A stretch of 64,000 nucleotides of DNA from an uncultured Actinomycetota bacterium (GTDB lineage Bacteria; Actinomycetota; Thermoleophilia; Gaiellales; Gaiellaceae): NCBI GenBank assembly GCA_963703255.1, contig OY969809.1:11332-75331 (forward strand), written 5' to 3'. The position numbers and the translations under genes are program-made. The notes beneath the pieces were generated by a model. It was not told the DNA's origin, made no database searches, and worked only from the letters and a program-made list of their open reading frames with translations. Positions 5,458-57,969 of the stretch are shown piece by piece. Positions within the stretch are counted from its first letter, which is position 1; every line of letters starts with the position of its first letter.

Positions 5458-5520
5458 CAGGTCGATGATGCCTTGCTCTGCAACGTCGGTCCCGGGGATC
5501 CGATCGTCGCAGCGCGAGGC

Positions 5521-6468
5521 TCAGCTTTCAAGGGGGGCGGCAAGGAGGTTGGTCATGAGCTCGTCGAGGTGTGCTGTTGCGAGGCAGATCGAGCTGTCGG
5601 CGGCACCGTAGTAGAGACGGAGCTCGTTCCGCGGGAGATCGTGGATGAGCCCGCAGGGAAAGACGACGTTCGGAACGTCGCCGGTTCGCTCGTAGGTTTC
5701 GAGCGGAGAGAGGATCCAAGCCGGGAGACGTCGCAGGACGCGCGTCGGCTCTTCGAGATCGAGCAGGGCGGCTCCGACCCGGTAGATCTCTCCTGAAACG
5801 GTCTCCTTGACTCCGTGGTAGATCAGGAGCCAGCCCTCGTCGGTGCGCAGTGGCGGCGGGCCGAGCCCGATCCGGAGGGAGTCCCACCACGCGCCTTCAC
5901 GCGGCTGGAGCACCTGCTCGGGCGAGCTCCAACTCTCGAGATCGGGTGAGCGCGAGAGGAGGATCTCGCCGCGGGCGCCTCCGAAGGCGGTCTTCGGACG
6001 ATGGAAGAGAACCCAGCGGCCGTCGATCCGGTGGGGCAGCAGCGCCGCGTTCTTGTCCTCGGGATGCCTGATCACGCCGTAGCGCTCGACTGTCGTGAAG
6101 TCCTCCGTCGTGGCGAGGAACACGGCGGGCCCGGCCGGGCCGTACGCCGTGCAGGTGATGACCCAGCGGTCGAGCTCCTCGACCCACACGGCCCGTGGAT
6201 CCTCGAACCCCCAGAGCTCGCTGGCGACGCCGGAGTCGGGTGCGAGCAGAGGCTCGGAAGCGATCGACCAGCCGTCGACGCCGTTCTTCGACCGGGCGAC
6301 CGTGAGATGCGAGATGCCCGTTCGATCCTCGACCCGGGCGACGAGGACGGTCTCGCCGTCCAGCATGGCTGCGGCGGGGTTGAAGACGGCGTTGACGGGA
6401 TACGGCCAGTCGTCGGCTGTGAGGATCGGGTTGGCGGGATGCCGTTGAAGGAGCTCGTGCGCGCTCAT
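5521..6468 (-). CDS. GH130-family glycoside hydrolase/phosphorylase (beta-mannoside phosphorylase-like)
   Basis: ORF 5521..6468. NPILT...VFNPAA...GFEDPR...EDKNAALLP...WVLFHRP...IGLGPPP pattern is typical of GH130 (DUF377). Confidence 0.85.
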   Translation of the reverse strand: MSAHELLQRHPANPILTADDWPYPVNAVFNPAAAMLDGETVLVARVEDRTGISHLTVARSKNGVDGWSIASEPLLAPDSGVASELWGFEDPRAVWVEELDRWVITCTAYGPAGPAVFLATTEDFTTVERYGVIRHPEDKNAALLPHRIDGRWVLFHRPKTAFGGARGEILLSRSPDLESWSSPEQVLQPREGAWWDSLRIGLGPPPLRTDEGWLLIYHGVKETVSGEIYRVGAALLDLEEPTRVLRRLPAWILSPLETYERTGDVPNVVFPCGLIHDLPRNELRLYYGAADSSICLATAHLDELMTNLLAAPLES

Positions 6469-23296: not shown

Positions 23297-23794
23297 TCAG
23301 GCAGCGCCGGCGCGGCGAGCCCCGCGAGCGGGGAGCCGCAGCACGACCTTGCCCGCCGGGACCCGGGCGCGCTCGTCGGCGAGCGCGAGGGCCGAGGTGG
23401 GGTCGCTCGCCTCGCCTGGAAGCGAGACACACCCGAGCGACACGCGCACCGCGAGCGCCTCGCATTCCAGGTCGAGCTCCGTGCGGATCGCGTCGAGAAG
23501 ATCGTCCGAGGGCGAGACCGTCCCGTCGATGAATGCGCAGAGCTCGGTCGACCGGGTGCGGTAGACGCTGCCGTTGTCGCCGACGAGGTCGGCGAGCCGG
23601 TCTCGCAGATGCGCGACGAGCACCTCGATCTCGGCAGTCGAGAATGTCGTCCGCTGCTCGCCCGGGTGCGGCAGGCCGAGCACGAGCAGCGCGCAGGCCG
23701 GGCTGGTCGGATCGGTCGCCTCGTCGAGGTCGATCAGGAGGCGAGCGCGGTCGAAGATCTCGGCGGAGCCTGTGGTGTCGGTGGCGTTGGTCAC
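23297..23794 (-). CDS. possible degenerate GGDEF-like domain protein (165 aa)
   Basis: Tail of ORF 23297..24133 from GTG 23794. The layout resembles a GGDEF domain (ALLVLGL...VLVAHLRDRL...VYRTRSTELCAFIDG...LALADERA) but lacks the GG[DE]EF signature. Tentative. Confidence 0.4.
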   Translation of the reverse strand: MTNATDTTGSAEIFDRARLLIDLDEATDPTSPACALLVLGLPHPGEQRTTFSTAEIEVLVAHLRDRLADLVGDNGSVYRTRSTELCAFIDGTVSPSDDLLDAIRTELDLECEALAVRVSLGCVSLPGEASDPTSALALADERARVPAGKVVLRLPARGARRAGAA

Positions 23795-23919
23795 ACACGC
23801 ACGAAAGCGCGGCCGGCATTTGTCGCCAATAACCCCAAAGGGTGAAGTCGATCCCTCGCGCGAGGGACTTGAGAAGCTTCTCCTCGATCGATGTGACCTC
23901 GAAGTCGAGTGAGCTCTAA

Positions 23920-24165
23920 AGAGCTCGAACCAACATGACCGTCGTCCCTGGTGCCCTGGGATCGTCCTCAAGCTCGGGACACCGGCGCTTCGCGCCCCTG
24001 TCCCGAGCTTTTGGCGACCTGGATCCCGCTCTCGAGCGGGATCCAGGGCTTCGCGGGTGAAACGGCCGGCTCTCGGACAGGCAACCAGCCTGGCCTGCGA
24101 GCCGGCCGTTGCACCCACTCGCTCCCAGAGCACCAGGAAGCGACGCTCGTGTTGGTTCGAGCTCT
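23920..24165. repeat. 246-bp nested inverted-repeat module folding as a cloverleaf (structured RNA or MITE-like element)
   Basis: 16-bp perfect terminal inverted repeats AGAGCTCGAACCAACA (23920-35) / TGTTGGTTCGAGCTCT (24150-65). Second helix 23947-60 / 24124-37 (13 of 14). Three internal hairpins: 23970-81/23999-24010 (12 bp), 24018-30/24035-47 (13 bp), 24061-72/24099-24110 (12 bp, extended by 24055-59/24112-16). Confidence 0.85.
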
Positions 24166-24201
24166 AAGACGATCTTCAGGCGGATCGCCTACGCTGTGGC
24201 A

Positions 24202-24723
24202 ATGCGCGCCCCAGCAATCCGGCTCGGGCTCGCCGCAAGCCTCGTGGTCGCCGGCGTCCTGCTCGGCGCCGGAGGTGTCTCGGCGGCCACGGTCCACTGG
24301 AACGAGACGGCGAAGAACGGGACCGCCCCGGTCATGGGCTTCACGGTCGGCTCGCTGACGTTCACGAGCAACGGTTGGAGCGCTCAGGTCTCGTTCAAGA
24401 ACCTCAGCACGAAGACGATCGAGATCGGCAACAACTTCGGCGCCGCGATCTTCTCCGATCACACGAGCACCGACCTCAACCGGACAGTCGGCTTCGCGCT
24501 CGCCCAGACCTTCTCGCCGGCACGGCCGACGAAGCTGGCGCCTGGCGCCTCATGGACCGGGAAGATCGGCGGGACGGGCCACCTGAATGCGAGCAGCGCG
24601 GTTCGCTATGCCCGCGTCGTCTTCGGGCCTCTGGTCGGGATGCCCGGACAGAGCAAGCCGGTCTTCTGGGTCACGGACCACTGGCTGCCGCTCGTGCCGC
24701 CGCCGAACCCGCTTTCCGCCTAG
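24202..24723 (+). CDS. secreted hypothetical protein
   Basis: ORF 24109..24723, ATG at 24202. Signal peptide MRAPAIRLGLAASLVVAGVLLGAGGVSAA, beta-rich mature part. No family recognised. Confidence 0.65.
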   Translation: MRAPAIRLGLAASLVVAGVLLGAGGVSAATVHWNETAKNGTAPVMGFTVGSLTFTSNGWSAQVSFKNLSTKTIEIGNNFGAAIFSDHTSTDLNRTVGFALAQTFSPARPTKLAPGASWTGKIGGTGHLNASSAVRYARVVFGPLVGMPGQSKPVFWVTDHWLPLVPPPNPLSA

Positions 24724-44832: not shown

Positions 44833-45714
44833 ATGACGAGGCGGCGCGGTCGGAGATTCCTGCTGGAGGTGGCGTTCCTTGCCGGAATCGCCGCGGGCGT
44901 CACCGTTGCGCGCCTTCATGCCCCGGCCGTGATCGCGCTGATGGCGGCGGCCTGGATCCTTGTCGCCCTGCTCGAGTGGGCGGCCTGGCGCGATGTCCCC
45001 CACTACGGGCGAGGGCTTCCGCCCCGCTACTACGTGCCGCAAGTGGCGCTTCCGCCACCTCGGGCGGTCGAGCAGCGCCCGGTGGCCTATCCGGCCGTGG
45101 CGGTGCCGGCGGAAGAGCCGACCTGGATCGCTCCGGCGGGCGAGTGGGGGGAGACGCTCGTCGACTGGCCCGTCTTCGGGTCCCAGGTCGTCGAGGAGAC
45201 ACAGATTGGCAATCAGACCCAGGTTGGCGATGAGACCCGGGTTGGCGATGAGACCCGGGTTGGCGACCGAGCCCAGCTCGGCGACGAGACCGAGATCATC
45301 GACGCGGAAGAGCTCGACGAGGAGCCGGTCGCGAGCGCTCACGGCGAGCTGGCGGCGATCGGGCTTCCCCCGGTGGTCGATGACGCAGACGAGCCGGTGA
45401 CAGCCGAGGACGCGCTCGAGCACGAGCTCGAGGAGCCGGTGCCTGCGCAAGCCGCAAGGGTCGATCCCGGTCTCGCCGCGGCCGTGCCCGTGCTCGAGTA
45501 CGAAGCGGTCGAGCTCCGGATGCCCGAGCGAATCGAGCGGCCCGCGTTCCACCACGTCGACCCGCTGGAGGCCCAGGCACGCAGGCGCTGGTTTCGCCGG
45601 ACAGTGGCGGAGACGGCGATCGAGATCCGCGACGGCGCTCCTCCCGGGCGCGCGCTTCCCGCAGCGTTGAGCGGCTCGGCGCCGGGCAGCGGACGGAGCC
45701 CGCAGGAGCCGTGA
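44833..45714 (+). CDS. membrane protein with acidic repeat region
   Basis: ORF 44833..45714. Two N-terminal TM helices, then an acidic region containing five xGDETR-type hexapeptide repeats. Confidence 0.6.
   Translation: MTRRRGRRFLLEVAFLAGIAAGVTVARLHAPAVIALMAAAWILVALLEWAAWRDVPHYGRGLPPRYYVPQVALPPPRAVEQRPVAYPAVAVPAEEPTWIAPAGEWGETLVDWPVFGSQVVEETQIGNQTQVGDETRVGDETRVGDRAQLGDETEIIDAEELDEEPVASAHGELAAIGLPPVVDDADEPVTAEDALEHELEEPVPAQAARVDPGLAAAVPVLEYEAVELRMPERIERPAFHHVDPLEAQARRRWFRRTVAETAIEIRDGAPPGRALPAALSGSAPGSGRSPQEP
45205..45294 (+). repeat. five tandem 18-bp units (two identical: GTTGGCGATGAGACCCGG)
   Basis: Read directly from the sequence. In-frame coding repeat IGNQTQ-VGDETR-VGDETR-VGDRAQ-LGDETE. 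Confidence 0.9.
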
Positions 45715-46118
45715 GGCGCCCGCTGGCCGAACGGCAGGCGATGCTCGCCGGGGCGGCGCTCCTTGCGATCGTGGCCTCGCTTGCGATCACCTCGCGGCAC
45801 GGGTCGCGCTCGGCGGATCTGCCGGCGCCGAGCGGGTCGTACAGTGCCCTCGTCAGCTCCACGGGGCCGGGCTCCTTCGGCAAGACGACCTCCTGTGCCG
45901 TCCGCCTCGGCCCGGCGACGCTCGGGATCTCGAGCCCGGTGCTGCCGTGCGGGGTGCGCCTCTACCTCTCCTACCGGGGAACGACGGTCCTCGCCTCGGT
46001 GATCGGACGAACGCCGGCCGCTCCCGGGGGCGAGTTCGGCTTGACGCAGGCGCTCGCGCGGCGACTCGGCGTCACAGGCGTCCGGCGCGTGCGCTGGAGC
46101 TACGCGGCCGCGAGTTGA
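45711..46118 (+). CDS. secreted RlpA-like (double-psi beta-barrel) protein
   Basis: ORF 45711..46118. GTG overlaps the upstream stop. TM/signal anchor, then a pattern resembling the RlpA/DPBB fold (SSPVLPCGVRLYLSYRGTTVLASVIGRTP...FGLTQALARRLG). Confidence 0.55.
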   Translation: MRRPLAERQAMLAGAALLAIVASLAITSRHGSRSADLPAPSGSYSALVSSTGPGSFGKTTSCAVRLGPATLGISSPVLPCGVRLYLSYRGTTVLASVIGRTPAAPGGEFGLTQALARRLGVTGVRRVRWSYAAAS

Positions 46119-46136: not shown

Positions 46137-46317
46137 GCTCGGAGTGCCCGATCCCGTGCGCAACGTCGCGCACCATGTAGAACCAACGCTACGTGAAAGG
46201 GAGCTCGTGTCGGGCCAGGCGCAGTTGCGCCCCCGGGCCGCGCGGCACCCACCTGGCTTGCCAGGTTCACACGGACGCGGCGAGCCGGCGGGGTCGGGGC
46301 ACTCCGAGCTTTTCTTA
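46137..46317 (+). ncRNA. candidate structured sRNA with 6S-like architecture
   Basis: 20-bp closing helix 46137-56 / 46289-46309 (one bulge, one G-U valid only on the plus strand) followed by TTTTCTT. A 16 x 14 nt internal loop, then helix 46173-84 / 46264-74. No protein-like ORF in any frame across 46119-46623. Confidence 0.3.
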
Positions 46318-57342: not shown

Positions 57343-57910
57343 ATGGCCGAGGTCGTCTCAACGAACCAGTTCAAGAACGGGATGCACATCGAGTTCGACG
57401 GGCAGACGTGGCGGATCGTCGAGTTCCAGCACGTCAAGCCCGGCAAGGGCGGCGCGTTCGTGCGCACGAAGCTGAAGGCCTACGACTCGGGCGCGGTGGT
57501 CGACCGGACGTTCCGCGCCGGCGAGAAGTTCGAGCGGGTCCGCACCGAGCAGAAGAACATGCAGTACCTCTACGACTCGGGCGACGAGGTCGTCTTCATG
57601 GACGAGGAGACCTACGAGCAGCTCTCGCTGCCGCGCTCGGCCGTCGAGGACGAGCTGCGCGTTCATGCAGCCCTCCTCGTCGGTTCAGGTGATGTTCGTC
57701 GGGGGAGCCCCTCGGGCGTCGACCTGCCCGCCTCGGTTGTCCTCGAGGTGACGCGACACCGAGCCGGGGATCAAGGGCGACACGGTCTCGAACGTCACGA
57801 AGCCCGCGACGCTCGAGACCGGCGGCGTCGTCCAGGTGCCGCTGTTCGTCAACATCGGCGACAAGATCAAGGTCGACCCGCGCGAGAAGCGCTACATCAG
57901 CCGGGCCTAA
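57343..57910 (+). pseudogene. efp: elongation factor P, three frame breaks as sequenced
   Basis: MAEVVSTNQFKNGMHIEFDG...VKPGKGGAFVRTKLK, then ELR|FMQPSSSVQVMFVGG (~57661, +1), G5 run ~57705 (-1) into [16 protein letters not shown], then |[23 protein letters not shown]...[12 protein letters not shown] (~57754, +1). Confidence 0.9.
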
Positions 57911-57969
57911 GAAGCTCTATCGGGTGAGCCCGGGTTCGTTGGGCCCTCACGCTAAGGTCCGCTGCACGG

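Follow-up and report, generated by a model that had tools for sequence, protein, structure and literature searches.

A probable MITE-like insertion with a four-way-junction fold at a C-TAA-G site between divergent genes of an uncultured actinobacterium

What is a 246-nt array of nested, near-perfect inverted repeats doing between two divergent genes of an uncultured actinobacterium, and is it the template of a structured RNA or the DNA of a mobile element? The sequence-only reading of the window (the whole 64,000-nt stretch of DNA analysed here) leaned weakly toward an RNA leader on the minus strand, with a non-autonomous mobile element (MITE) as the alternative. It had placed the array in a divergent intergenic region, and the gene starts agree, delimiting a region of 407 bp between the following two genes.

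23297-23794, minus strand: orphan gene, 165 aa, start at 23794
24202-24723, plus strand: orphan gene, ATG at 24202, 173 aa, signal-peptide-like N-terminus

Profile search returned no significant protein family for either flanking orphan protein. The label "GGDEF-like" given earlier to the product of 23297-23794 has behind it only a non-significant match to TIGR00254 (GGDEF; E = 0.17), and no Pfam domain was found. Homologues of both proteins are rare: among 5.8 billion proteins, they form 17 clusters for the plus-strand protein and 11 for the minus-strand protein, and the named homologues of both are from Gaiellaceae. The 165-aa minus-strand protein also has a paralogue (P0027, 42% identity) located outside the window on the same 3.3-Mb contig. 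The neighbours further out encode GT4 and GT2 glycosyltransferases and an NhaA-DsbA fusion.

Inspection of positions 23920-24165 confirmed every helix, the three hairpins and the four-way junction that had been described there, and the minimum-energy fold of the element is itself a four-way junction. The parts are as follows.

23920-24164, no strand: inserted element, 245 bp, non-coding, a four-way-junction palindrome, missing at four syntenic orthologous loci
23920-23944, plus strand: left terminal inverted repeat, (A)GAGCTCGAACCAACATGACCGTCG, 25 nt, 92% complementary to 24141-24165
24141-24164, minus strand: right terminal inverted repeat, recognised by its complementarity to the left arm and by the shared end motif
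23947-23964, no strand: left arm of the inner closing helix, 18 nt, 89% complementary to 24120-24137, with a C23955/A24129 mismatch
24120-24137, no strand: right arm of the inner closing helix, pairing with 23947-23964
23970-24010, no strand: internal hairpin 1, 12 + 5 bp, with TTTT next to it on the plus strand
24018-24047, no strand: internal hairpin 2, a perfect 14-bp palindrome (100% complementary)
24055-24116, no strand: internal hairpin 3, an 18-nt stem (94%) and a 5-bp apical stem

The outermost 16 bp of the terminal arms (23920-23944 and 24141-24165) pair perfectly. That stems of this kind exceed chance, as had been proposed, was borne out by folding: the predicted energies were -188.5 kcal/mol for RNA of the plus strand (z = -18.6), -199.8 kcal/mol for RNA of the minus strand (z = -17.4) and -112.1 for DNA (z = -15.5), so that z is about -18 for RNA on both strands, and none of 200 shuffled controls was as stable. 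In a survey of all 250-nt stretches of the window, whose 50-nt sampling step clipped part of the right arm, the element was joint most stable, and it tied for this rank although, at 66% GC, it is among the least GC-rich of these stretches. Taken as separately nested mini-elements, the three hairpins were rejected, because they have no flanking duplications and no copies elsewhere.

An extremely stable predicted fold invites the explanation that the element specifies a structured non-coding RNA, either the 5' leader of the minus-strand open reading frame 23297-23794 or an independent small RNA, in which the cloverleaf would be functional. The TTTT that follows hairpin 1 on the plus strand is also compatible with this explanation, and it is known that transcripts of MITEs can adopt stable structures and in some cases give rise to small RNAs (PMC10969869). 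The earlier preference for the minus strand relied on the C23955/A24129 mismatch, which becomes a G-U pair there. Counting all pairs removes this argument. Watson-Crick pairs account for 99 of the 102 base pairs in the fold; three pairs, G-U on the plus strand, turn into A-C on the minus strand, whereas a single mismatch becomes G-U on the minus strand and three others pair on neither strand. This pattern contains no strand signal and resembles a DNA palindrome that has picked up a small number of random substitutions, which argues against a structured RNA. So does the lack of an Rfam family: as had been surmised from inspection, the element matches no named RNA family at the gathering threshold, the sole passing match in the whole window being a tRNA, and a permissive Rfam scan of the region returned only microRNA-hairpin noise (best 28.4 bits against a threshold of 100). 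Neither a sigma-70-like promoter nor an intrinsic terminator was detected in 23600-24400. The position of the element is also unfavorable to a leader, since it lies 125 nt upstream of the start of the minus-strand gene, past the conserved promoter-proximal block, and upstream of the probable -35 of the plus-strand gene. A retron msr-msd RNA was likewise looked for, and no adjacent reverse-transcriptase gene was found among the neighbours (GT4/GT2, two orphans and NhaA-DsbA).

A separate region of the window resembles a known RNA family. Positions 46143-46304 (plus strand), in the gap after open reading frame 45711-46118, gave a full-length match to RF00013 (model 1-187; 27.3 bits versus a gathering threshold of 46.4, E = 5e-4). 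This region folds with -116 kcal/mol (z = -5.8), is closed by a 15-bp stem (GCTCGGAGTGCCCGA / TCGGGGCACTCCGAGC) followed by TTTTCTT, and is probably a divergent 6S RNA.

The element had also been described as covered by no protein-like open reading frame. This holds in substance only, since three frames are mechanically open across it, none of which has relatives in protein collections. The concatenated six-frame translation gave no matches among 5.8 billion proteins, and for the +0 frame, searched against 1.84 billion representative proteins, the single hit was P0029, an artefact of tandem repeats.

Orthologous loci bear directly on the choice between a conserved RNA and an insertion. The window was compared with five loci that keep the same divergent gene pair (L010, L011, L016, L017 and L018); L012-L015 and L019, which are more distant orthologues in other gene contexts, are uninformative and were left out. 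Four of the five syntenic loci lack the element, with intergenic regions of 257 bp (L011), 139 bp (L016), 139 bp (L017) and 163 bp (L018). Subtracting the element and one TAA from the intergenic region of the window leaves 159 bp, to be compared with 139 to 257 bp in these relatives, each of which has one T(C/T)TAAG exactly where the window has TAA-[245 bp]-TAA. In alignment A2, all six loci share the arrangement T(C/T)TAAG..TCAGG..GATCGCCTACnCT, followed by 6 to 8 nt and the start codon, with T(C/T)TAAG about 35 nt upstream of that codon. This alignment suggests that the transposon target is located at about -37 to -35 of the plus-strand gene. The intergenic region of L011 folds no better than shuffled sequences (z = -1.1). 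A conserved cis-regulatory leader is expected to keep its structure at the orthologous position, and four relatives have no element there; the proposed minus-strand leader, with no Rfam family and no strand bias either, is thus not upheld. The fifth relative contains elements that are unrelated to the window element apart from their ends. We regard a functional structured RNA as very unlikely.

The flanks of the element were next to consider, and they proved to be a direct repeat of three nucleotides.

23917-23919, no strand: left copy of the duplicated target TAA, a direct repeat of 24165-24167
24165-24167, no strand: right copy of the duplicated target TAA, within the conserved host site CTAAG

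The junctions read ...gtgagctc TAA [A GAGCTCGAACC...GGTTCGAGCTC] TAA gacgatc..., from which it follows that T24165, counted earlier in the 16-bp terminus, already belongs to the duplicated TAA as its first base and that the element proper spans 23920-24164. Thus, the MITE alternative stood as far as inverted repeats, a target-site duplication and empty orthologous sites are concerned, with the correction that the flanks are TAA/TAA and not AA/AA. The left end has one extra A relative to the right end, and the exact boundary and duplication (TAA, AA or CTAA) are slightly ambiguous. In the window element and in the two elements of L010 described below, the flanking triplet is repeated directly (TAA...TAA and not TAA...TTA), which marks it as a duplicated target site and not as further inverted repeat, and all three elements lie in the context C-TAA-G.

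The fifth syntenic locus, L010 (ena:ERZ25039595:contig_76777), is occupied at 5482-5832 by two hairpin elements in tandem, arranged as TAA-A-TAA-B-TAA with the middle TAA in common. L010-A (164 bp) has the form TAA [GAAGCTC...GAGCTTC] TAA and L010-B (178 bp) the form [GAGCTC...GAGCTC] TAA; both are located at the same TAA, upstream of the same gene, as the window element. Unlike the latter, which folds as a four-way junction, both form imperfect rods (z = -9.0 and -4.7). Homology between L010-A and L010-B extends over their whole length (z = 16.9), whereas neither core is similar to that of the window element (z about 0). Over the terminal 25 nt, the window element and L010-A/B are weakly but consistently alike (z = 2.7 to 2.8). 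The motif GAGCTC-N4-CA-NN-ATGA is present on all six arms of the three elements, which start with GAGCTC (window), GAAGCTC (L010-A) and GAGCTC (L010-B) and whose ends are all GA(A)GCTC...ATGA inverted repeats. Conservation of the termini with freedom of the cores is the pattern of a transposase substrate; a functional RNA would show the opposite. L010-A and L010-B represent another MITE-like family, separate from the window element, whose ends are of the GA(A)GCTC type and which resides in a related genome.

The signature of these elements proved specific. A blind scan of 279 kb looked for their architecture, namely a TNA, then an inverted repeat that begins with GA and is at least 14 nt long, then that TNA again. 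Exactly three elements were found, namely the window element, L010-A and L010-B, and shuffled controls gave 0 to 1. In the 64-kb window, where host DNA is 70% GC, TAA occurs 29 times and TTA 28 times, and CTAAG/CTTAG (CTWAG) was observed 10 times in the whole window against about 52 expected from base composition, an approximately fivefold under-representation. A transposase specific for TNA would therefore meet few targets in this genome. The reconstructed, element-free intergenic region of the window contains a single CTNAG, and with targets this rare, re-use of the site in two lineages needs no special (homing) mechanism. A bolder version of the insertion hypothesis would make the GAGCTC-ended elements a family that homes to C-TAA-G at the -35 of this promoter and stacks there in tandem, as in L010, with a four-way-junction core that is functional, be it as a mobile gene for a structured RNA or, between the divergent promoters, as an insulator or cruciform; we consider this version highly improbable.

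Another CTAAG of the window has a neighbourhood of some resemblance to an element end. At 57908-57960, CTAAG-AAGCTCTATC directly follows the TAA stop of a gene ending in ...KRYISRA and precedes a short GC hairpin and GCTAAGG. This segment resembles one GAAGCTC-type end beside a second CTAAG and could be a chance match or a decayed fragment. As further elements with the end signature, both this position and 8984 were rejected, the former being a stop codon plus a short hairpin and the latter a lone match.

The element is present in one copy in the 64-kb window, and searches for other copies or for a parent insertion sequence gave negative results. The 18-nt terminus AGAGCTCGAACCAACAYG had no match in viral contigs, 9 matches in GTDB representative genomes and 18 in JGI metagenomes; in the last two collections, all were single-arm chance matches of at most 23 nt, with no double-arm match. 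BLAST searches of the element against plasmids and phages and of L010-A/B against plasmids returned nothing, and the 279 kb scanned contain no locus in which such ends enclose a segment of up to 1.8 kb. Being a singleton in all accessible data, the element could be an in situ remnant, that is, the residue of a full-length insertion sequence whose transposase gene was removed by an internal deletion, solo and never mobilised in this short form. The same inverted repeats, duplication and empty sites fit this scenario. However, the core has no trace of a transposase frame and no protein match in any frame, it consists of three tidy palindromes and not of a truncated coding sequence, and the short elements of L010, which have the same type of ends, exist as separate units and stack. 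An in situ remnant is unlikely on these grounds, although it is still a serious rival.

A further possibility is that the palindrome acts through DNA structure, as a cruciform or as single-stranded DNA (REP/BIME-like, attC-like, origin-like or a recombination site), and is not the substrate of a DDE transposase. Both strands do fold equally well as DNA (z = -15.5), the architecture is that of a four-way junction, and hairpin elements are stacked at one site in L010. Nevertheless, REP/REPIN and IS200/IS605-type elements lack the combination of terminal inverted repeats and direct duplication that is present in all three elements considered here, no integrase, RAYT or replication gene occurs among the neighbours tested, and the palindrome is not repeated within the window. 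This explanation is very unlikely.

Together, terminal inverted repeats, the TAA duplication, empty orthologous sites and the absence of coding capacity are the features of a MITE-like non-autonomous transposon, and a lineage-specific insertion of such an element at C-TAA-G between the divergent genes is the probable origin of the structure. The element agrees with the definition of prokaryotic MITEs in size, inverted-repeat length and duplication length (PMC11602168, PMC10969869). Its 245 bp fall within the range of about 50 to 800 bp in prokaryotes; its inverted repeats (16 bp perfect, 25 nt at 92%) compare with a minimum length of at least 10 to 15 bp; its TAA duplication falls within 2 to 10 bp, with a single intact target at the empty sites of L011, L016, L017 and L018; and no relatives exist for its open frames in the protein collections. 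With three long, near-perfect internal hairpins, the element is more structured in its core than MITEs typically are.

Transposition would involve a DDE transposase provided in trans that binds the terminal inverted repeats over roughly 20 to 25 bp (GAGCTC...ATGA). This transposase probably belongs to the IS5 family and would be IS1031/IS427-like, within the PIF/Harbinger-IS5 superfamily. A 3-bp staggered cut at TNA, followed by gap repair, would leave TAA duplicated on both sides of the element. In agreement with such an enzyme, the duplication is a 3-bp TNA in the context C|TNA|G for three of three elements, and the starts GAGCTC, GAAGCTC and GAGCTC correspond to the GAG / GA start of the IS5 (IS1031/IS427)/PHIS groups. 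The assignment to an IS5/PHIS-type transposase, based on analogy, deserves less confidence than the insertion itself. The three-hairpin "cloverleaf" would be palindromic DNA cargo for which no function is required. Mobilisation in trans is a step that we infer, as is any effect of the insertion on the promoters.

The consequences of the insertion in cis depend on the promoter of the plus-strand gene, for which one candidate element was located.

24190-24195, plus strand: host -10-like hexamer TACGCT, 6 nt before ATG 24202, with TACnCT kept in six of six orthologous loci

TACGCT may be assigned as a putative promoter element of the plus-strand gene, and its conservation 6 nt before the ATG suggests a leaderless mRNA for a small secreted orphan protein. 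The element, being upstream of about -37, would then lie outside the plus-strand transcript if the mRNA is leaderless. The only likely effect of the element is one in cis, namely to shift the sequence upstream of about -37 of the secreted-protein gene 248 bp further away. The same intergenic region contains a 16-bp palindrome, TCCCTCG-NN-CGAGGGA, at 23852-23867 of the window, at 5429-5444 of L010 and at about 1497-1512 of L011. Its centre is CG in the window and AT in L010 and L011, and it is still palindromic; at this position, another palindrome is found in L016 and L017. The conserved 16-bp palindrome is a putative operator for a dimeric regulator of the divergent gene pair.

If the insertion is as we propose, the element is probably the first small non-autonomous transposon to be described in an uncultured actinobacterial lineage that has hardly been studied, and it would show the IS5/Harbinger-type C|TNA|G targeting signature operating in this lineage. 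It lies exactly where a probable leaderless promoter has its upstream boundary, so that expression of the secreted protein may be altered. The locus also teaches caution: a "cloverleaf" that looks like a tRNA and is spectacularly stable can be nothing more than palindromic DNA of a transposon. It leaves current understanding of mobile elements and of RNA unchanged.

Among related elements, L010-A and L010-B share with the window element the target TAA, the gene, the end motif and the TAA duplication, and differ from it in length, fold and core. Correia elements of Neisseria and ERIC are small, have inverted repeats and are located in intergenic regions near promoters. Transcripts of another bacterial MITE, QMITE2 of Coxiella, are predicted to fold very stably (PMC10969869). 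The window element resembles these three in small size, inverted repeats, intergenic location near promoters and a very stable predicted fold. They are set apart from it by their copy number (tens to hundreds per genome), their mostly AT-rich composition and their fold into a single rod, the window element having 66% GC, a four-way junction and one copy in the searched data. In the PHIS superfamily, some groups target C|TNA|G, where the duplication can be read as either 3 bp or 5 bp long (PMC4482050). The Tourist-type MITEs, mPing among them, duplicate TTA/TAA (PMC2836001). With PHIS NuwaII and with Tourist-type MITEs (mPing), the window element has in common the C-TNA-G context, the 3-/5-bp ambiguity and a short, non-coding, inverted-repeat-bounded structure. 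NuwaII and mPing are eukaryotic families, and any relationship of the window element to them would run via the bacterial IS5 branch. In that branch, the IS5-family element IS1237 (IS427/IS1031 groups), known from the actinobacterium Leifsonia xyli, starts with GAGGTGG... at its ends and duplicates TTA/TAA (PMC2516522). The inverted repeat of the window element, GAGCTCGAACCAACATGA, differs from that of IS1237, GAGGTGGTTTCAGTAGTCG, and, unlike members of the IS1031/IS427 groups, the window element has no transposase gene and has a core made of three long palindromes. What it shares with IS1237 and these IS5 groups is GAG ends, a 3-bp TNA (TAA/TTA) duplication and an actinobacterial host.
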